DNA of 34,934 bases from an uncultured Ruminococcus sp. (GCA_937901485.1 CALGTT010000173.1:1-34934), one strand, 5' to 3'. Shown: positions 3,706 through 30,575, counted from the first letter of the stretch. Notes: generated from the sequence alone by a model not told the origin. Made by a program: numbers and translations.

Positions 3706-5526
3706 ATGAGTTCATCCATCCAGCGATTATTCGGCGCAGCCGCGGCATTTGCCGTGCTCGCATCGGGCTGCACGGCGCAGCCCGCCGAATCCGGCACATC
3801 GTCCGCATCCGCTGAAGCGGATACCACAGCGAGCAGTACAGCTCCGGCAGAAACAAAAACCGCAGAAACAACTGAAAGCACGCAGGAAGCAACGGCTGAC
3901 ACATCGACAGCAGAGCCGGATTTTGATGCCCTGTTCTCCGCGCGTGACCTCAGCGGAAGTTACGACACGCCCTCGGCAGTCATCGTGTGCAATGGAACCG
4001 AAGTCACCATTGACGGTACGGGCGCATCCGCGGACGGCAGTGACATCACCATCACGGACGAGGGCGTGTACCGGATCACGGGCGTGCTTGATGACGGGCA
4101 GATCCTTGTCAATTCTGCCGGAAAGGTGCAGCTCGTGCTTGACGGTGTTTCCCTGTCCTGCGCGGATTCCGCGCCGATCTATGTCCAGCAGGCAAAGAAA
4201 TGCTTCCTGACGCTCGCAGACGGCTCGGAGAATACGGTTTCCGACGGCAGCACCTATGCACAGGAAGGAAACGAGCCGGACGCGGCAATCTTCAGCAAGG
4301 ACAGCCTGACCATCAACGGCGGCGGCACGCTCACAGTCACAGGCAATTATAACGAGGGCATCACCAGCAAGGATGACATTGTTATCACGGGCGGCACGCT
4401 GCACATCACGGCGGTCGGAAACGGCATCAAAGGAAAGGATTATGCCGCATTTGCAGGCGGCACGGTCAATATCAAGGCAGGCGGTGACGGCATCAAATCG
4501 GACAATACCGAGGACACCAGCCGCGGCTTTGTGTACATCCATGACGGCAGTATCACAGTCGAAGCGGCAGAGGACGGCATTCAGGCAGAAACGCAGTTCC
4601 TTGCAGACGGCGGTACTGTTCGCGTGCAGAAAGCCTATGAGGGGATCGAGGCGGCAGCCATCCGCATTTCCGGCGGCAGCATCGAGGTCACAGCAGAGGA
4701 TGACGGCATGAACGCCAGTGACGGCACTGTACAGGGCGGCATGGGTACTTATTCGGCAGGGGCATCCCTGGAGATCTCCGGCGGTTCGGTGTATGTGAAT
4801 GCGGACGGTGACGGGCTGGATTCCAACGGCGATCTGCGCATCAGCGGCGGCACGGTCATTGTGGATGGTCCATCAAACAGCGGCAACGGCGCGATCGACA
4901 GTAACGGCGAACTGCTCTGCACGGGCGGTCTGCTCATTGCGGCAGGATGCTCCGGCATGGCAGAATATCCCAGAGGTACGCAGAAAACCGCTGTCATTAC
5001 GCTTGACGCGATGCAGGATGGCGGCACGGAGATCCGCATCCTCGGTGCGGACGGCAGCGAGCTTCTCGCACACACGCCAGCAAAAGCCTTCAATTCCCTG
5101 ATCGTGAGCAGTCCTGATTTTGCGGACGGCACATCCTGCACCTGCACAGCAGGCGGTACGGAGATCGGCAGCTTCACCTTTACGGATACGGTCGCGTTCC
5201 TTGGTGATGCCGGAAACATGATGGGCGGCGGCTTCCGCGGCGGCGGACACGGTAACATGGGCGGCGGCAGAGGTCAGCGTCCGGACATGCAGATGCCGAC
5301 TGACGAAAACGGCGAACCCGTATTTTCCGAGGGTATGACACCGCCGCACGACATGCAGATGCCGACTGACGAAAACGGCGAACCTGTATTTTCCGAGGGC
5401 ATGACACCGCCGCACGACATGCAGATGCCGACTGATGAAAACGGCGAACCTGTATTTTCCGAGGGCATGACACCGCCGCAGGGCGGCTTTGACGGAAGAA
5501 TGCCCATGGACAGGCAAATCTCATAA
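3706..5526 (+). CDS. Lipoprotein with a Cthe_2159-type (DUF4353) carbohydrate-binding beta-helix domain and a repetitive Gly-rich / 22-aa-repeat tail
   Basis: Track ORF trimmed to ATG 3706 (SD GAAAGGTG 5 nt upstream). Signal sequence with a lipobox-like AVLASGC. S/T/A/E-rich linker. Repeated beta-helix rungs typical of the family: ITITDEGVYRITGVLDDGQILVNSAGKVQLVLDGVSLSCADSAPIYV, ITSKDDIVITGGTLHITAVGNGIKGKD, GGDGIKSDN, AEDGIQAE. Confidence 0.8.
   Translation: MSSSIQRLFGAAAAFAVLASGCTAQPAESGTSSASAEADTTASSTAPAETKTAETTESTQEATADTSTAEPDFDALFSARDLSGSYDTPSAVIVCNGTEVTIDGTGASADGSDITITDEGVYRITGVLDDGQILVNSAGKVQLVLDGVSLSCADSAPIYVQQAKKCFLTLADGSENTVSDGSTYAQEGNEPDAAIFSKDSLTINGGGTLTVTGNYNEGITSKDDIVITGGTLHITAVGNGIKGKDYAAFAGGTVNIKAGGDGIKSDNTEDTSRGFVYIHDGSITVEAAEDGIQAETQFLADGGTVRVQKAYEGIEAAAIRISGGSIEVTAEDDGMNASDGTVQGGMGTYSAGASLEISGGSVYVNADGDGLDSNGDLRISGGTVIVDGPSNSGNGAIDSNGELLCTGGLLIAAGCSGMAEYPRGTQKTAVITLDAMQDGGTEIRILGADGSELLAHTPAKAFNSLIVSSPDFADGTSCTCTAGGTEIGSFTFTDTVAFLGDAGNMMGGGFRGGGHGNMGGGRGQRPDMQMPTDENGEPVFSEGMTPPHDMQMPTDENGEPVFSEGMTPPHDMQMPTDENGEPVFSEGMTPPQGGFDGRMPMDRQIS
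5284..5481 (+). repeat. In-frame tandem repeat, 3 x 66 bp (22 aa: DMQMPTDENGEPVFSEGMTPPH)
   Basis: Units start at 5284, 5350 and 5416. Units 1 and 2 differ by two synonymous changes (ccc/cct, ggt/ggc). Units 2 and 3 differ by one synonymous change (gac/gat) plus the last codon (cac to cag). Confidence 0.95.
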
Positions 5527-5568: not shown

Positions 5569-8094
5569 TTATGCTTCATCCTGCGGAATCAGCTTATTCG
5601 GTCTTGAAAAGAGATAGCCCTGTGAATAATCTACATCATAGGCACAGAGGATGTTCTGGATCGCGTCATTCTCTACGAACTCTGCAATCACCTTCTTGTT
5701 GCTCATCTTGCACCACATTGCCAGCATCTGGAGAAGCTGACAGCAGTTGCGGTCATCACAGATCTTCTGGATGATGCCGCCGTCCACCTTCAGGAAATCC
5801 AGATCCAGACGGAGTACATGGATCAGGTTCGAGAAGCCGCTGCCAAAATCGTCCAGCGCGATCTTGCCGCCGTAGGCATGGATCTTCTCCGCAAACTGGG
5901 CGAGGGCATCGTAATCATTGATCTCCTCCGATTCCACGACCTCAAAGACATAATTTTCCGGATGTCTGGAATGCTTCATATTTGTGTAGATCAGCTCTGT
6001 CACCAGCGGATCAAGGATGTCCTGCATGGAAAGATTCATCGTGACAAGCTTGTCCTTCTTCTCGATATACGCCATGACCTTTGCAATCATCTGACGGGAA
6101 AGCTGACCGTACAAGCCGTATTTTCTGGCGATCGGGAAAAATTCTCCCGGATAATAGACCTTTCCGTCCGTATCACAGATGCGCATCAGTGCCTCATACA
6201 TGACGATCTTCTTGGCGGAATTGTCATGGATGCCCTGATAATGCGGCAGTACGCCGTCATTGGCGATCGCGTCATTGATCACATGCACCATATGCATATC
6301 ATGGACATTCTTGTCCGCCATGCCCATCTCCTTAGAGAAGACAAGGAAGTGCAGGTCACTTCTGCCGCGCAGGTCACTCTGTGCGATCTTGACACAGCGC
6401 AGAAGATTGGAATCGTTCATTGCCAGACAGAAATCATAAACGGGCAGGATGCGGTAGTATTCTGCGGTCGAAAGATGCGTCCAGAGCCTGCGCATCAGCT
6501 GCTCGAATTCCTCCGCGGTCACATCGTCATTTGCAGAGATCATCAGCTCGCCCTGATCGGAAAGATAGTACCAGAAATGATAGTCTTTCAGGAACTTCTG
6601 CATCATATCCAGCACCTGCCATGTCAGACGGTCATAGGCACGGTAGCCTGCATACGCGATCATCTCACTGCAATTACGCGCAGAGATCAGGCAAAGCTTG
6701 TTGATCTTATGTACCTGCGTATCATAAAACAGCTTTGCAATTCGTCCGAGACGCAGCTCGCGGTTGTCGTACAGACGGGATTTCATTTCCTGGAAGAAAC
6801 GATTGTCCTTCTGGTTTCCGTCGGCTGCGGACATCGCAAGAAAGTCGATCAGATGCTCGTTATCATGATAGAGCATATGCGTCGTGCCGAGGTTGGAGGT
6901 ATCCAGAACGAGCTTGGTATCCGAGGTTGCAAGTGCGGACACGACAAAGGTACAGTTGCCGAAGCGGTTGTGCTGTCCGTCATAGAAGAACTCACCGCCG
7001 AGGAACGCACCAGCCGCCGTAGTGTGATTCAGGGGCTTCTGCTCCCATTTGGAGCAGTTCTGGAGCATTTCTGCACGGAGCGTACAGCTGTAGGCGAAAA
7101 TCGTTTCACCCGGCTGGCTTTTCAGTTTGCGGTACATGCGGTTGACCTCGTCCACCACAAGCGTCGGACTGATAAAGCCCAGTGCGACTTCCTCGCCCTG
7201 CTCAAGCTCATCCATGATCATAACTGCGTCGATCTTTCTGCTGCCGCCGCTGAACGCCATCGGCCATGCACAGGTCGGGTGTTTTTTGCGGATGACCGGG
7301 AAAATACGGATCACACCGAGATTTGCCCTGTCAATATTGCCGCCGCCGAATTTCGCAAGCAGCTCCGTGGGCGTGCGTCCGGCAACTTCGTAAATGAAAT
7401 TGCCCTCGCAGCGATCCACAGTTCTGTAGCCGCTGATCTTCTCCATACCCAGCGCATAGCTCTCCGAGCACTGCATCTGCGGGGAAGAGAGCACTGCCGC
7501 CGCCAGATGACCGGAGCCGCAGTATTCACGGGAAATGGTAAAGTCACTTTCTGTGATCACGCCTTCTGCACTGAATTCCACCTGCTGGTCATTGGCTATG
7601 CCGCCTATGATGCGGATGTCAGGGCAGAGTGTGTCGATCGTTTCAGCAAACTTACATGCCTGATAGTATTTCTGCGGAAGAAATACCAGAAGCTGCCCTT
7701 TCCGTTCACGCAGTCCAAGCGATTCGATCACCTGCATGGCAAGAACGTCACCGGATACCGAGGTTCTTTCGCCGCTTTCATTGCATTCGGAAAAGCAGGA
7801 AATACTGACGCTGTCCACACTGCACTGTTCGGGCACAGCAAAGACTGTAACGGAAATCATGCAGACCTCCGTCAGCCGTCTTCCGTTGAAAATTACGGCA
7901 GGACTGCTGCAGCCAATGAACTGCGCATTGGGCAGAAGCAGTTTCAGCTCCTCAAGAAGTGCGCGCATTCCCTCTGCGTCATGCACAGCTGTGTGAACGC
8001 GCACAAGCATTGAGGCATCGCAGGAAATGTCGTTCTCCTCCAAAAAAATACTGAACTGCTGCATTGTCGAAAAGATATGATTACAGGTCCTCAT
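5569..8094 (-). CDS. Signalling protein: FIST-like N-terminal sensor, degenerate GGDEF-like middle region, intact C-terminal EAL c-di-GMP phosphodiesterase domain
   Basis: The track ORF starts at GTG 8193 with no SD. I prefer ATG 8094 (MRTCNHIF...), preceded by GGGGGTGG. The EAL signature residues are all present: YEALMR, TMNLS, FEVVESE, DDFGSGFSN, LKVDGG, AEFVEN, SQGYLFSRP. The N-terminal 400 aa resemble FIST_N/FIST_C (moderate confidence). The middle region has DQGEL where GGDEF would lie. Confidence 0.85.
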   Translation of the reverse strand: MRTCNHIFSTMQQFSIFLEENDISCDASMLVRVHTAVHDAEGMRALLEELKLLLPNAQFIGCSSPAVIFNGRRLTEVCMISVTVFAVPEQCSVDSVSISCFSECNESGERTSVSGDVLAMQVIESLGLRERKGQLLVFLPQKYYQACKFAETIDTLCPDIRIIGGIANDQQVEFSAEGVITESDFTISREYCGSGHLAAAVLSSPQMQCSESYALGMEKISGYRTVDRCEGNFIYEVAGRTPTELLAKFGGGNIDRANLGVIRIFPVIRKKHPTCAWPMAFSGGSRKIDAVMIMDELEQGEEVALGFISPTLVVDEVNRMYRKLKSQPGETIFAYSCTLRAEMLQNCSKWEQKPLNHTTAAGAFLGGEFFYDGQHNRFGNCTFVVSALATSDTKLVLDTSNLGTTHMLYHDNEHLIDFLAMSAADGNQKDNRFFQEMKSRLYDNRELRLGRIAKLFYDTQVHKINKLCLISARNCSEMIAYAGYRAYDRLTWQVLDMMQKFLKDYHFWYYLSDQGELMISANDDVTAEEFEQLMRRLWTHLSTAEYYRILPVYDFCLAMNDSNLLRCVKIAQSDLRGRSDLHFLVFSKEMGMADKNVHDMHMVHVINDAIANDGVLPHYQGIHDNSAKKIVMYEALMRICDTDGKVYYPGEFFPIARKYGLYGQLSRQMIAKVMAYIEKKDKLVTMNLSMQDILDPLVTELIYTNMKHSRHPENYVFEVVESEEINDYDALAQFAEKIHAYGGKIALDDFGSGFSNLIHVLRLDLDFLKVDGGIIQKICDDRNCCQLLQMLAMWCKMSNKKVIAEFVENDAIQNILCAYDVDYSQGYLFSRPNKLIPQDEA

Positions 8095-12039: not shown

Positions 12040-12144
12040 CGAAAAACGCACATGCCGAGATATGCAAAACGCACAAAAAAACAAAAGGGATTTTGTACCA
12101 AATTGCCTATAGCGTGGAAAATTCGTCTATATCCCCGACAATTC

Positions 12145-12173
12145 TTGACTTTTTTCGATCCGAGGTATAAAAT
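12145..12173 (+). promoter_or_regulatory. Candidate sigma-A promoter for the MATE gene
   Basis: TTGACT (12145-12150), 17 nt, TAAAAT (12168-12173), about 30 nt upstream of the start. Confidence 0.45.
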
Positions 12174-12207
12174 AAAAGATAGAAAATATACAAAAAGGAG
12201 AATGCAT

Positions 12208-13569
12208 ATGAATGACAAGACAAGAGAAGTCTTCCGGAACGCCCCCGTTCCGGTGGCTGTACTGACCAACATCATCCCCTCGATCGTCAGCATGATCATG
12301 GTGCTGCTGTACAATCTGGCGGATACATTTTTCATCGGGCAGACCAAAGATCCGCTTATGGTCGCGGCGGTTTCTGTCGCAACGCCGGCATTTCTGCTGT
12401 TCATGGCAGTGGGTATGCTGTTCGGTATCGGCGGCACTTCCCTGATCTCGCGCACACTGGGAGAGGGCAACGAAAGGAAGGCGCGGCGCATCTCGTCATT
12501 CTGCTTCTGGACGGGGCTGGGGATCGGCGTGGTTTCCACACTCCTGATGATCCTGTTCAGCCGTCCGATCTGTATGCTCATCGGTGCAAGTGCGGATACA
12601 GTGGGCTATGCTTCGCAGTATCTTTCCATCGTGGCACTGGGTATCCCATTCCTCATCCTGAGCAATGCATTCAGCAATATCATCCGTGCGGAGGGCAAGC
12701 CCGTGATCGCAATGGCTGGCATGATCGCCGGCAATCTGGTGAACATCGTGTTCGATCCGATCATGATCCTGAGCTTCGGCTGGGATGTTGCCGGTGCGGC
12801 GATCGCAACGGTGCTGGGCAATGTGGTTTCATCGGTGATCTACCTCGTCCACCTGCTCTCCAAAAAATCCATCCTCTCGATCCATCCCAAGCACTACCGT
12901 GTAAGAAACGGCATCCTTTCGGGAGTTTTCGCGATCGGCATTCCGGCATCCCTCAACAGCGTGCTGATGAGCTTTTCGAATATCATCATCAACAACCTCA
13001 TGCAGCCGCACGGCGATATGGCGGTGGCAGGTCTGGGCGTGGCGATGAAGGTCAACATGATCGTGGTGATGCTCCTGATCGGACTGGGCACGGGCATCCA
13101 GCCGCTGCTGGGCTACTGCTTCGGTGCAGGCAACCGCAAACGCTACATGGCAGTGCTGAAATTTTCGCTGTGTCTCGCGCTTGGTCTGAGTGCGGTGATG
13201 ACAGTAGTCTGCTACGCCTTTGCAGGTCCTTTGGTAACGGCGTTTCTCGATAATGCGGACGCATACGGCTTTGGTATGCAGTTTGCAAGAATCTATATTT
13301 ATTCCGGTCCCATTCTGGGTGTGCTGTTCGTGCTGATGAATGCGATCCAGTCCACCGGTGCAGCTCTCCCCTCCCTGATCCTTTCCCTGAGCCGGCAGGG
13401 TATCCTGTTCATCCCGACCATCCTGATCCTGAACACCTTCCACGATGCCAGAATCCTCTCCATGGCACAGCCCATCACGGATTATCTCGCAACAACGGTT
13501 GCAGCGATCCTGTTTATTGCGACGTATCGGAAGTATCTGAAGAAGATGCAGGAAACAACGGAAGCCTGA
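12208..13569 (+). CDS. MATE family efflux transporter
   Basis: Track ORF trimmed. AAAGGAG (12194-12200) lies 7 nt before ATG 12208 (MNDKTREVFRN...); the ATG at 12202 is too close to the SD. The product is 453 aa with 12 predicted TM segments and a typical MATE N-terminus: PSIVSMIMVLLYNLADTFFIGQ ... GIGGTSLISRTLGEG. Confidence 0.9.
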   Translation: MNDKTREVFRNAPVPVAVLTNIIPSIVSMIMVLLYNLADTFFIGQTKDPLMVAAVSVATPAFLLFMAVGMLFGIGGTSLISRTLGEGNERKARRISSFCFWTGLGIGVVSTLLMILFSRPICMLIGASADTVGYASQYLSIVALGIPFLILSNAFSNIIRAEGKPVIAMAGMIAGNLVNIVFDPIMILSFGWDVAGAAIATVLGNVVSSVIYLVHLLSKKSILSIHPKHYRVRNGILSGVFAIGIPASLNSVLMSFSNIIINNLMQPHGDMAVAGLGVAMKVNMIVVMLLIGLGTGIQPLLGYCFGAGNRKRYMAVLKFSLCLALGLSAVMTVVCYAFAGPLVTAFLDNADAYGFGMQFARIYIYSGPILGVLFVLMNAIQSTGAALPSLILSLSRQGILFIPTILILNTFHDARILSMAQPITDYLATTVAAILFIATYRKYLKKMQETTEA

Positions 13570-17289: not shown

Positions 17290-17351
17290 AGTGTACTCCT
17301 TTTCTGCCGCACCTGCCTTGCCGGATGGAAGATTTGCCCGCAGACGGACGC

Positions 17352-17383
17352 AAAAAGGCACTCCTGTTCAAAACAGAAGTGCC
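17352..17383 (-). terminator. Intrinsic terminator inside the rtcB leader (candidate attenuator)
   Basis: Minus-strand RNA GGCACUUCUGUU uug AACAGGAGUGCC forms a 12-bp stem with one G-U pair, followed by UUUUU. It lies 62 nt upstream of the rtcB ATG and 40 nt downstream of the uORF stop. Confidence 0.7.
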
Positions 17384-17423
17384 CATTGAATCCGTACGGT
17401 AAGATACTATGACCTGCGGAAAA

Positions 17424-17522
17424 TTAGACGCAGGCTCCCCCATCCGAAAGGCATACGGCTGTCTTGTTTGTGTGGTTATGTGATTTTGTTGTGCTGCATA
17501 TGGATTGATAACTTCTGAACAT
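17424..17522 (-). CDS. 32-codon upstream ORF (candidate leader peptide)
   Basis: Not in the track. My translation: MFRSYQSICSTTKSHNHTNKTAVCLSDGGACV. SD GGAAGGTGA lies 6 nt upstream of ATG 17522. The uORF starts about 25 nt after the TSS predicted from the 17555-17583 promoter. Its stop codon sits in the loop of the CCTGCG/CGCAGG hairpin (17413-17435). Confidence 0.45.
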   Translation of the reverse strand: MFRSYQSICSTTKSHNHTNKTAVCLSDGGACV

Positions 17523-17554
17523 ACCGTTCACCTTCCTTTCTGTAGAATGGTTTT

Positions 17555-17583
17555 ATTATAGCACAGAATTCCGTGGTTGTCAA
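17555..17583 (-). promoter_or_regulatory. Exact consensus sigma-A promoter driving the uORF-rtcB-hflX transcript
   Basis: Minus strand: TTGACA (17583-17578), 17 nt, TATAAT (17560-17555), with an extended TG (TGcTATAAT). Confidence 0.7.
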
Positions 17584-17622: not shown

Positions 17623-17651
17623 TTGCAATCCGCGCGGATGCGTGATATAAT
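17623..17651 (+). promoter_or_regulatory. Sigma-A promoter for the cohesin-peptidase-dockerin gene
   Basis: TTGCAA (17623-17628), 17 nt, TATAAT (17646-17651), with an extended TG. SD AAAGGAGG at 17691-17698. Divergent from the rtcB promoter. Confidence 0.65.
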
Positions 17652-17705: not shown

Positions 17706-19790
17706 ATGAAAACAAAACTGATCGCCGGCATCACGGCTCTGCTCATGGCAGCAGTCTGTTCCGGCTACACAGCAGCTGCGCAGGGTTCAGAAAACAACGG
17801 CATTTCCATCGAAATCGACCGCATCACACTGACGCTTGACGAGCTTGCGGCACTTGATCACACCGTGCCCGTCTATGTCCGTGTGACGGAAAATGCCGGC
17901 TTTGATGCCGCGGAATTCGGTGTCCGCATTGATGAACGCTGCGGCTTTGACAAGGATATCAAATGGCTTGACTACGATGATGGCTACGCATCCGTCGGGC
18001 AGGATCTCATCTGGCGCGTGCTTGCCAATCATGAAAACTGGTACGATACGGGCACGATCCTGAAAGTGGAGCTGACGGTTCCGGAGGATGCACAGATCGG
18101 GGATGTGTACACAGTCAGCTACTGCGATGCGGAATACAAGCCCCATGTCTGGAGCAGTCTGGACGCGGACAGGGATCATGCCGCTTCCGGAAACGTGACA
18201 TGGACGGACGGCTATGTGGAAATCATCGAAACGCCCGAAGATACGGGGTTTGTTCTCGGCGAGGATGACTGGAGCTTCCTCAACAGCGCACAGGCATTCG
18301 GCACAACCTATTATAAAATGAACAGCAATTATTTAAAAAAACTGAAAGAGGGATTGAATCCGATTGAGCGTGAGCGCGTGGATGCAATGCTGTTCAATTC
18401 GTGGGGCGGCGCGTGCTATGGCATGGCAGTGACCTCACTGCTTGCACACAATGACATCATGAACCCCGCACAGTGGCAGGTCGGCGCACACACGCTGCAT
18501 GACATCAGCAGTCCCCCCTCGGAGGAGATCCTGTCGCTGATCCACTATTACTGCGCACTCCAGAAAACCGACATGATAATGGGAATGCAGACGGACTATG
18601 TCTATCTGCGCACCGAGGAGGAAAAACTGCGCATTCTCATAGACTGTATGGCAAAGGACTCCCCCGCCCTGCTGACCTATGTGGACTATACATGGGGTGC
18701 TCACGCGGTCGTGGCATATGATCTCATTTCAGGACATTTCGTCCATGACGGCAAGACCTACAACCGGAAGACTCTGCTGTACGATTCCAATTATGACGGT
18801 TTGCAGGATGATTGCTGCCTGTATTTCAACACGGACACATGGGAATGGACGATTCCCGGCTATGGTCTGCATTCCGGCAAGAGCTATCTGGGCATTGTCA
18901 CGGATGATATTGACCTGCTCAACCGCGGCGGCTATCTGGACGGCTCAGAATACATTTCCCCCGATCCCTATATTTCCATCCTGACCTCCTCCCCCATCAG
19001 CGCGGAGTTCACCATTTCCCAGACTGATGATGCCGGAAATCCCGCGCCGCCGGAGACACTGCATTCTGAAGTGCCCGGAAGCGGCATTCGTGCCTTCGCA
19101 TCACTTGCCGGTGCGAATCATGTGCAGGAGGTCTGCTTTGCACTTCCGAAGCCGGACAGCGGCTATCTGATGCAGCTCGAAACGCCCGATTCGCTGGCAC
19201 TGGTAATGAACTATGAGGATTGTCTGCTCAGGCTCAGCGCGGACGCGGCAGTCAGCGCGGCATTCGATCCTGCCGGCAGGATCACGATGGAGGGCGTGCA
19301 GACGGATTATGAAATGAAGATCCTGTACAGTGAGGAAATCTGCGCGGATGACAATTATCTGCACATTGAGGGACAGAACGCTTCCCGTGCAGAGCTGGAA
19401 CGCGTGGATGCGGGCTATCTTCTGACAGCGGACGACCTGCGGATGCTCTCCGTGAATCTGCGAAGCGGCGAAACTGACGAAGCACTGGGATTTTCCGTGC
19501 AGGCCGACCGTGTTCTCCTGCATCGGGCAGAGAACGGCGTGCTCAGTGCATCCATAGACACGGACGGTGACGGCAGCTTTGAAACGCCCATTGCCCGAAG
19601 TTCGGACATGCTGACGGGCGACCTGACGCTTGACGGCGTGCTTTCCATTTCGGATGTGATCGCGCTGTCGCAGAATCTTCTCTGCGGCAAAAAGCTCAGT
19701 ACCATCCAGAAGCAGCTTGCCGACCATGACAGTGACGGCATCCCGACTGCGGCGGATCAGCTTGCACTGCTGCATGATGTATTAAGATAG
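17706..19790 (+). CDS. Secreted protein: N-terminal cohesin-like module, central papain-fold-like Cys/His domain (putative peptidase or transglutaminase-like), C-terminal dockerin
   Basis: 694-aa track ORF with signal peptide MKTKLIAGITALLMAAVCSGYTAAAQG. Cohesin-like strands: VPVYVRVTENAGFDAAEFGVRID ... ILKVELTVPEDAQIGDVYTVSY. Candidate catalytic Cys in NSWGGACYGMAVTSLL, His in WGAHAVVAYD and Asp/Asn in LLYDSNYD. Dockerin: DTDGDGSFE ... GDLTLDGVLSISDVIALSQNLL ... DHDSDGIPTAADQLALLHDVL. Confidence 0.85.
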   Translation: MKTKLIAGITALLMAAVCSGYTAAAQGSENNGISIEIDRITLTLDELAALDHTVPVYVRVTENAGFDAAEFGVRIDERCGFDKDIKWLDYDDGYASVGQDLIWRVLANHENWYDTGTILKVELTVPEDAQIGDVYTVSYCDAEYKPHVWSSLDADRDHAASGNVTWTDGYVEIIETPEDTGFVLGEDDWSFLNSAQAFGTTYYKMNSNYLKKLKEGLNPIERERVDAMLFNSWGGACYGMAVTSLLAHNDIMNPAQWQVGAHTLHDISSPPSEEILSLIHYYCALQKTDMIMGMQTDYVYLRTEEEKLRILIDCMAKDSPALLTYVDYTWGAHAVVAYDLISGHFVHDGKTYNRKTLLYDSNYDGLQDDCCLYFNTDTWEWTIPGYGLHSGKSYLGIVTDDIDLLNRGGYLDGSEYISPDPYISILTSSPISAEFTISQTDDAGNPAPPETLHSEVPGSGIRAFASLAGANHVQEVCFALPKPDSGYLMQLETPDSLALVMNYEDCLLRLSADAAVSAAFDPAGRITMEGVQTDYEMKILYSEEICADDNYLHIEGQNASRAELERVDAGYLLTADDLRMLSVNLRSGETDEALGFSVQADRVLLHRAENGVLSASIDTDGDGSFETPIARSSDMLTGDLTLDGVLSISDVIALSQNLLCGKKLSTIQKQLADHDSDGIPTAADQLALLHDVLR

Positions 19791-30487: not shown

Positions 30488-30569
30488 GCGCCTGTGGTGA
30501 AATTGGCATACACGTTGGATTTAGGTTCCAATTCCGCAAGGAGTGCAGGTTCAAGTCCTGTCAGGCGCA
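30488..30569 (+). tRNA. tRNA-Leu (anticodon UAG)
   Basis: Hand-folded cloverleaf. Acceptor GCGCCTG/CAGGCGC. D-arm GTG-AAATTGGCATA-CAC. Anticodon arm TTGGA-TTTAGGT-TCCAA. Long variable arm TTCCGCAAGGAGT. T-arm GCAGG-TTCAAGT-CCTGT. Discriminator A. CCA is not encoded. Confidence 0.9.
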
Positions 30570-30575
30570 CTCACA

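Follow-up and report, generated by a model that had tools for sequence, protein, structure and literature searches.

A conserved leader with a short upstream open reading frame ahead of rtcB in gut and rumen Oscillospiraceae/Ruminococcus: a candidate ribosome-dependent transcription attenuator

The rtcB-hflX locus and its leader

The minus strand of a 34,934-nucleotide stretch of DNA from an uncultured Ruminococcus sp. (GCA_937901485.1, CALGTT010000173.1:1-34934), here called the window and always meant at its full length, carries rtcB, a 55-amino-acid (55-aa) open reading frame (ORF) and hflX behind a leader that is the subject of this work. From its 5′ end the leader consists of a promoter, a short upstream ORF (uORF) led by a strong Shine-Dalgarno (SD) sequence, a hairpin and an intrinsic terminator, after which a spacer leads to rtcB (Table 1). 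An initial annotation of the window had read this arrangement as a candidate ribosome-sensing attenuator. The leader is a real and conserved control element, confirmed far beyond chance, and it is very probably a uORF-dependent cis-regulator; the more specific reading of it as a four-segment, trp-like and ribosome-dependent attenuator of transcription is modestly favoured. The uORF, the terminator and the existence of mutually exclusive pairings have stood up, while the pairing first proposed as antiterminator, the emphasis on hflX and the analogy to erm and hflXr need correcting, as set out below.

Table 1. Features of the leader and of the genes behind it; all leader coordinates refer to the minus strand of the window
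Feature	Position	Strand	Description
Promoter, sigma-70/SigA type	17583-17555	minus	TTGACA, 17 nt, TG-n-TATAAT; extended -10
Segment A	17542-17520	minus	Extended SD CAGAAAGGAAGGUGAAC and uORF AUG (17522-17520); nearly invariant block; pairs with B
uORF	17522-17424	minus	32 codons and stop; ATG 17522-17520, TAA 17426-17424; product MFRSYQSICSTTKSHNHTNKTAVCLSDGGACV
Segment B	17468-17440	minus	ACAAGACAGCCGUAUGCCUUUCGGAUGG; within uORF codons 19-28; strand shared by A, the terminator 5′ arm and C
Hairpin H2	17435-17412	minus	GCCUGCG / CGCAGGU, 7 bp; uORF stop in loop
Intrinsic terminator T	17384-17352	minus	5′ arm 17384-17372, loop 17371-17369, 3′ arm 17368-17356, U-tract 17356-17352
Segment C	17351-17305	minus	Begins directly past U-tract, ends beside rtcB SD; partners B and bases just 5′ of T in read-through transcripts
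rtcB with its SD	17304-16066	minus	SD AAAAGGAG 17303-17296, ATG 17289; Pfam RtcB, E = 5e-62; NCBIfam
55-aa ORF	16058-15891	minus	MEKFVPYAKMSKKARRKLDLKKRGSWGLCNPAARQEENKKAYRRHTKHRKRNWED; very basic; start 8 nt past rtcB stop; end overlaps hflX SD
hflX	15885-14641	minus	Ribosome-splitting GTPase; Pfam; NCBIfam GTP_HflX, E = 1e-137; last read-through gene

The promoter is the sole 12/12 match to the consensus in the 6 kb scanned, both of its hexamers are kept in 27 aligned homologues and it is present in essentially every homologue; transcription is predicted to start at about 17548. The SD of the uORF is GAAAGGAAGGTGA, or CAGAAAGGAAGGTGAAC in its extended form, and the uORF start, like the placement of its stop in a hairpin loop, is as initially annotated. 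The stem of the terminator has 13 pairs (17384-17356) rather than the 12 first counted, is followed by TTTTT and folds at -19.4 kcal/mol. No promoter-like site was found in a scan of 17352-17290, the 62 nt ahead of the rtcB ATG (25-35 nt in relatives), which supports the earlier suggestion that rtcB is reachable by read-through only. The identities given to rtcB and hflX are borne out by Pfam and NCBIfam.

The full leader has a minimum free energy (MFE) of -89.9 kcal/mol (z -4.2) in a fold that contains a helix between segments B and C, and the terminated RNA is compact as well (z -2.9), with a helix between A and B in its MFE fold. No second copy of the leader was found in the window. Rfam covariance models gave no match to the leader at gathering threshold, either in the window or at seven homologous loci, and the only match to it at E<=10 is a chance one to a miRNA, in keeping with the initial remark that it was not recognised as any riboswitch or T-box class.

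An undescribed leader family

A scan by RtcB protein, with one genome per species, yielded 80 loci. The leader lies upstream of rtcB at 16 of them when the window leader is used as an nhmmer query and at 28 with a profile built from those 16. A scan of metagenomes by the pattern of promoter plus SD block gave 111 matches, about 31 of them full leaders, the remainder being unrelated genes that have only a strong promoter and SD in common with these. Once duplicates were removed, 53 distinct copies remained, from genomes and metagenomes of gut and rumen Oscillospiraceae/Ruminococcus. No plasmid-borne copies were found, and no description of the leader turned up in the library of papers searched. 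It is taken to be an undescribed conserved family of these bacteria.

The promoter, the SD block, the AUG, an ORF of 24-38 codons that remains open and a tract of 5-8 U are present in all 53 leaders. The conservation and covariation that the initial annotation had proposed to look for are found in the family, in the terminator and in the helices of A and of C with B discussed below. Terminator hairpins of homologues fold at -15 to -26 kcal/mol (L051 is an outlier at -10.1 or -22.8, depending on the folding window); in the stem alignment 98.9% of cells are paired, compensatory changes occur at 5 of the 10 pairs and a score as high as the observed one was reached in 0 of 500 shuffles. From the uORF stop to the U-tract there are 41-79 nt, with one outlier at 104. 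The notion of a generic uORF and terminator ahead of more distant rtcB genes was discarded, as a comparable arrangement occurs at only one of 49 such loci (L013).

Several departures from the common layout are seen. Four leaders (L004, L007, L008 and L009) have an extra ~27 nt between the -10 box and the SD block (columns 37-63 of alignment A1), which form a small 5′-terminal hairpin ahead of A and may serve as a 5′ stabiliser. Two others, L015 and L017, have 100-170 nt inserted between the leader terminator and the rtcB SD; the L017 insert holds a TATAAT-like box, and rtcB may there have gained a second promoter. In metagenome loci the promoter together with the SD string GAAAGGMAGGTGA also precedes unrelated long ORFs, among them TnpB-like ORFs (IS200/IS605) at L125, L148, L154 and L179, ORFs with a ClpB-like N-terminus at L081, L171 and L176, and phage-like genes, all of these labels having been given by eye from N-terminal sequence. 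As the string is common to unrelated genes, the SD block alone is a generic high-expression signal and no marker of the leader.

A maintained reading frame with a free peptide

Among 791 codons of uORF spacer there is no in-frame stop, whereas the two remaining frames have ~22 and ~38, and insertions and deletions preserve the open frame. The uORF always spans B, its stop comes 3-12 codons past B and in 48 of the 53 leaders that stop is within a hairpin. These features support genuine maintenance by selection of a short, SD-led, promoter-proximal ORF. Codons 2 to about 20 form a spacer that is A-rich and G-poor and, because of this composition (45% A, 10% G), unstructured.

What is maintained is not the peptide, which differs freely among relatives and has neither an RLR-type arrest motif nor single-codon runs. 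Block B (AAGACAGCCGTATGCCTTTCGGATGG, 17465-17440, in the window; CATGGAGTTTGCC(C/T)GCA in a second sub-group) is read in three frames across the family, as TWSLPAR, HGVCL or MEFA(R/C)T, which argues that B is an RNA element that the ribosome must traverse. A conserved arrest peptide (TAVCLSD / TWSLPAR) was considered and rejected, since the same nucleotide block is translated differently among members.

Two other readings turn on this uORF. In one, the attenuator wiring discussed below would be kept but its input would be specific, a sensor of tRNA damage working through 'hungry codons': the Thr, Lys, Tyr, Asn and His codons of the spacer would be read by tRNAs that anticodon nucleases cut, and stalling on them would induce the resealing RtcB. 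The gene behind the leader is mostly rtcB, NAY codons are mildly enriched in the uORF frame (206 observed against 172 expected, z ~3, a value inflated by the non-independence of the sequences) and Tyr and Thr are commoner in frame 0 of the spacer than in its other frames. The bias is weak, however, and stems mostly from the base composition, one-codon runs are lacking from peptides that vary freely between relatives and the leader also drives exporters and acetyltransferases, so that this reading was set aside as distinctly unlikely. In the other the ORF would be incidental to a ligand- or protein-binding riboregulator such as a riboswitch, a T-box-like element or a ribosomal protein leader. 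That the 5′ leader is conserved and structured, and ends in a terminator that could act as the expression platform, would suit such a device, but with the chance miRNA match as the only Rfam match at E<=10, with an A-B interval and an H2 loop that are unconserved in sequence or length, and with stops strongly excluded from one frame, it is a most improbable one.

Segment B and its three mutually exclusive partners

B can pair with A, with the 5′ arm of the terminator or with C, each pairing excluding the other two. To the A:B helix A contributes the AUG together with the SD's 3′ half, and a duplex of -16 to -26 kcal/mol is predicted at the same site in all 27 leaders. When columns were anchored independently of pairing, 86% of cells were paired and 3 of 2000 permutations reached the observed count. 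Compensatory changes occur at positions 3, 6, 7 and 8 and include A-U to G-C, C-G to U-A and U-G to A-U, and in L013 the helix is preserved although its sequence differs (GGCAGAC:GTCTGCC). The bases of B that are engaged overlap those used for pairing with the terminator arm.

C begins 0-3 nt past the U-tract in 27 of 27 leaders, and variants of B and C match pair for pair (GCCCGC:GCGGGC, GCCUGCA:UGCAGGC, GCCCGU:ACGGGC, and further GCCCGAACGA:UCGUUCGGGC and CCUUUCGGA:UCCGnAAGG). In stability B:C equals A:B and exceeds the helix of B with the terminator arm. The complementarity of CGGAUGG (17446-17440) to CCAUCCG (17328-17322), to which the initial annotation had drawn attention, is real and is part of this longer conserved helix. 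When cognate duplexes were compared with non-cognate ones among 32 representatives, A:B and B:C were the two helices with the strongest co-variation (p<2e-4 for each), the value for B with the terminator 5′ arm being p=0.016.

With A masked, in imitation of a ribosome on the start site, and the transcript truncated before the 3′ arm of T, folding pairs the 5′ arm of T with B and H2 caps the stem; in the window ACAAGACAG pairs with CUGUUUUG and UGCC with GGCA. The best upstream partner of the terminator 5′ arm lies in B in 50 of 53 leaders, with a median of -13 kcal/mol, and the register has 83.5% of cells paired compared with 28-63% in slid registers.

The antiterminator first put forward, CAGAAGU (17517-17511) with ACUUCUG (17380-17374), fared less well: it is present in the window but lost in the closest relatives (CATCAGT in L001, CAGTCAT in L004) and is probably due to chance. 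Pairing of A with the terminator 5′ arm was likewise rejected as an antiterminator, since it offers 4-6 bp only, A is invariant while T varies and, by eye, there is no consistent register. A role for B:C as a switch on the rtcB SD was also dismissed, as the predicted accessibility of that SD is unchanged, its unpaired probability being ~0.6 whether the leader is free or is masked at A, at B or at the uORF stop.

Separately, the U-tract and first bases of C (17356-17345) can pair with rtcB codons 10-13 (17258-17250; GCAAAGG, Ala-Lys-Val). The pairing recurs in many rtcB leaders and had no obvious counterpart in one leader of an ABC transporter gene, read by eye; conservation of the AK(V/I)F codons may be all that lies behind it.

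A timing model and the evidence on either side of it

In the proposed attenuator A would be segment 1, B, in the last third of the uORF, segment 2, and the two arms of the terminator segments 3 and 4. The consensus promoter would fire constantly. With no ribosome on the leader, A:B and then T would form and transcription would stop ~195 nt from its start. An unhindered ribosome would be on B and H2 while polymerase makes T and, with B covered, T would again form and terminate. A pioneer ribosome that was detained at the AUG, or moved slowly over the ~20 unstructured A-rich codons, would leave A covered and B naked, and ribosomes reloading on the strong SD would cover A too. The antiterminator that we infer is B paired with the emerging 5′ arm of T, in a stem of which H2 is proposed to be the tip, and its formation would delay the terminator hairpin while polymerase passes the U-tract and goes on into rtcB, the 55-aa ORF and hflX. 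Most likely, then, rtcB and hflX are read through to only when the uORF ribosome is delayed.

C, made right after the U-tract, would then capture B, whereupon T could form harmlessly and B could not re-close the uORF's ribosome-binding site. That B:C resolves the antiterminator in this way and keeps the uORF site open on the full-length mRNA is a guess; it might also insulate the cassette from the cargo, the genes that the leader precedes.

The distances within the leader (46-67 nt from AUG to B, ~80 nt from B to T, with a uORF of 24-38 codons) fit a race between the first ribosome and polymerase at typical rates of transcription and translation, and their narrow spread supports such a race. 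The leader SD is complementary to almost the whole of the 16S 3′ tail usual in Firmicutes, and so strong an SD would give fast loading and reloading. The leader is proposed to report slowed or blocked early translation in general and not a specific arrest of ribosomes by peptide and drug. A further step, to which we attach tentative weight, would make it a drug-agnostic 'pioneer-ribosome race' sensor responding to any slowing of the passage from initiation to early elongation relative to transcription, on the grounds that the uORF supplies its own ribosome-binding site as the first switch strand and that the peptide can vary freely. Such slowing might come from several classes of antibiotic, from cleaved tRNA or from damaged 16S 3′ ends.

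A number of results weigh against the attenuator. Covariation in the helix of B with the terminator arm does not exceed that of shuffles, both strands being conserved; no consensus helix is recovered there by RNAalifold from the truncated alignment, and single-sequence z-scores for it are weak (median -0.7). At equilibrium the pair probability of the terminator stem is at least 0.83 whichever region of the uORF is masked, and the terminator fold is the more stable by a median of 13 kcal/mol. A ribosome parked at the stop covers H2 but only the 3′ end of B, and B:C, the best-supported helix after A:B, is only loosely explained by the model. The homologues, moreover, are all from metagenome-assembled genomes or metagenome sequences. 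The folding check proposed at the outset thus has a divided outcome: exclusive pairings centred on the uORF exist, but a terminator/antiterminator switch at equilibrium is rejected, and with the terminator winning in every masked state any antitermination must be kinetic. In the Escherichia coli trp leader the gap between the 2:3 and 3:4 pairings is of similar order, with the terminator also favoured and the switch a kinetic one.

The same results bear on an alternative, held to be unlikely, that places the regulated step after transcription. The terminator would constitutively bleed off most transcripts started at a very strong promoter, and regulation would lie in the choice between A:B and B:C: when 30S subunits or intact anti-SD sequences are scarce, A:B would close the uORF site, while B:C would keep it open in read-through mRNA, with an effect on ribosome loading near the 5′ end and hence on mRNA stability or cargo translation. 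It would accommodate the strong co-variation of just these two helices, the invariable position of C within 3 nt of the U-tract, the want of an equilibrium antiterminator and the resemblance of A, as a near-full complement of the Firmicute 16S 3′ tail, to the STAB-SD sequences discussed below. It sits poorly with the rtcB ribosome-binding site having the same predicted accessibility in all states and with a distance from C to the cargo SD that ranges from 2 to ~30 nt among cargos, and it leaves unexplained why the uORF runs through B and stops in H2 and why 50 of 53 leaders have a terminator 5′ arm with complementarity to B. The attenuator remains the preferred reading.

Cargo genes and genomic setting

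The leader is tied to rtcB rather than, as had been emphasised, to hflX, which comes after rtcB in none but the closest relatives (L001-L010 and L114) and is absent from most family members. Elsewhere the cargo is rtcB alone, a DrrA-like ABC ATPase with an ABC-2 permease, rtcB behind a MatE pump, or a GNAT acetyltransferase, either by itself or with a P-loop kinase-like protein; the P-loop and GNAT proteins had no informative match in PDB or NCBIfam. One metagenome contig (L170) has two divergent copies of the leader 1.5 kb apart serving different operons, and looks like a small cis-encoded regulon. The copies are at 4329-4498 (minus) and 6054-6248 (plus), one with an operon of a P-loop protein and GNAT and the other with an ABC-2 exporter operon. 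Such variety argues for a portable cassette responsive to translation stress or antibiotics, not a device specific to hflX or rtcB, and against a purely tRNA-damage-specific input.

Cargo also bears on whether promoter, uORF and terminator might constitute an independent gene for a small RNA or a small protein, with rtcB expressed by unregulated leak-through. The unit is complete as far as transcription goes, having a strong promoter and a terminator of its own, and the compactness of the terminated RNA (z -2.9) would suit a small RNA. Its peptide, however, is not conserved, it is always 25-135 nt upstream of a same-strand cargo gene with no room for another promoter, C lies past the terminator yet co-varies with B, and the cargo is swapped while the unit is kept. 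This makes an independent gene quite improbable.

The 55-aa ORF between rtcB and hflX is conserved in L001, L004, L005, L009 and L010 and matched no Pfam family; its small product may bind RNA or the ribosome as a partner of RtcB or HflX. A second 55-aa ORF, at 16195-16028 (minus), is probably spurious, as it shares the final 130 nt of rtcB, in a different frame, and owes its apparent conservation to the rtcB sequence underneath. In L001, at ~3900-4010 between the small ORF and hflX, there is an insertion of ~90 nt with a G/C-rich palindrome (CCCCTCCCCTCGGGGAGGGG) that is absent from the window and may be a terminator or a repeat separating hflX from rtcB.

Upstream of the leader lies the gene of a dockerin protein (17706-19790, plus strand); since it is divergent, the leader owns the intergenic region. 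A near-consensus promoter at 17623-17651 (plus; TTGCAA-17-TATAAT with TG) faces that gene. Another, at 14644-14616 (minus; TTGACA-17-TATCAT with TG), lies across the hflX stop (14643-14641) and extends a little beyond it. A MatE efflux gene at 12052-13569 (plus), 1 kb past hflX, has no leader copy of its own, and a tRNA-Leu at 30488-30570 (plus; anticodon tag) is the only Rfam or ARAGORN match in the window.

Relation to known systems

Leader-peptide attenuators of amino-acid operons, of the E. coli trpL type, share with the leader a constitutive promoter, a short SD-led ORF and an intrinsic terminator. On the model proposed here they would also share three competing pairings (1:2, 2:3 and 3:4), a terminator far more stable than the antiterminator and termination both without translation and with a ribosome at the stop. 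In contrast to trpL, segment 1 of the leader is the SD and start codon of the uORF itself rather than codons within the ORF, there are neither regulatory codon runs nor a conserved peptide, a fourth partner, C, recaptures segment 2 past the U-tract, and the cargo is concerned with RNA repair, ribosome rescue and efflux and not with biosynthesis.

Listeria rli80-hflXr and the antibiotic-sensing ARE-ABCF, erm and bmrCD leaders are, as is proposed for the present one, Firmicute cases of uORF-dependent read-through of a terminator with stalled ribosomes as the presumed signal, and the gene set involved includes an hflX homologue and exporters (PMC6310831, PMC4191407). In rli80, a leader of the macrolide-lincosamide type, a 14-codon uORF with an RLR (+x+) arrest motif and a terminator/antiterminator pair precede hflXr (PMC6310831). 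There is no sequence similarity between rli80 and the present leader, whose ORF has 24-38 codons and no conserved motif and whose link with hflX is confined to one sub-clade. The translational attenuation of ermC and cat is similar in having a leader ORF, alternative hairpins and a long-range helix that reaches to just 5′ of the cargo SD; it is different in that no predicted state of the present leader sequesters the cargo SD and a terminator with U-tract is always present.

In E. coli and Salmonella rtcBA is controlled by RtcR with sigma-54. STAB-SD sequences of Bacillus mRNAs are very strong SDs a few nt from the 5′ end that can hold a 30S subunit or a stalled ribosome; the leader resembles them in its strong SD near the 5′ end, but this SD starts a maintained ORF and switches with B. 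Anabaena rtcB and hflX are induced by translation inhibitors via promoter repeats (PMC8421152). Both the RtcR and the Anabaena controls turn RtcB on when translation or RNA integrity is compromised, as the leader is proposed to do, and differ from it in that they are trans-acting protein or promoter mechanisms, whereas the leader would be a cis-acting RNA read by the ribosome.

Implications

We know of no account of how the decision to induce rtcB is taken outside the RtcR/sigma-54 paradigm, and the leader offers a testable answer in which the ribosome itself is the sensor. The repertoire of attenuators is widened by a uORF ribosome-binding site that is self-sequestered as segment 1, by a peptide that is irrelevant and by a third helix past the terminator. 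Possible uses are as a compact general reporter of translation stress and, through 'guilt by leader', as a marker for resistance and repair genes.

Should the pioneer-ribosome race sensor prove true, no RNA regulator acting in cis on a bacterial rtcB would have been described before it, the B:C helix past the terminator would amount to a new 'lock' and a portable cassette would wire RtcB, HflX, exporters and modifying enzymes into a cis-encoded translation-stress regulon of rumen and gut Oscillospiraceae. Through the leader RtcB would join HflX, exporters and acetyltransferases in one stress regulon, in Firmicutes of gut and rumen that are abundant, mostly uncultured and exposed to feed antibiotics.

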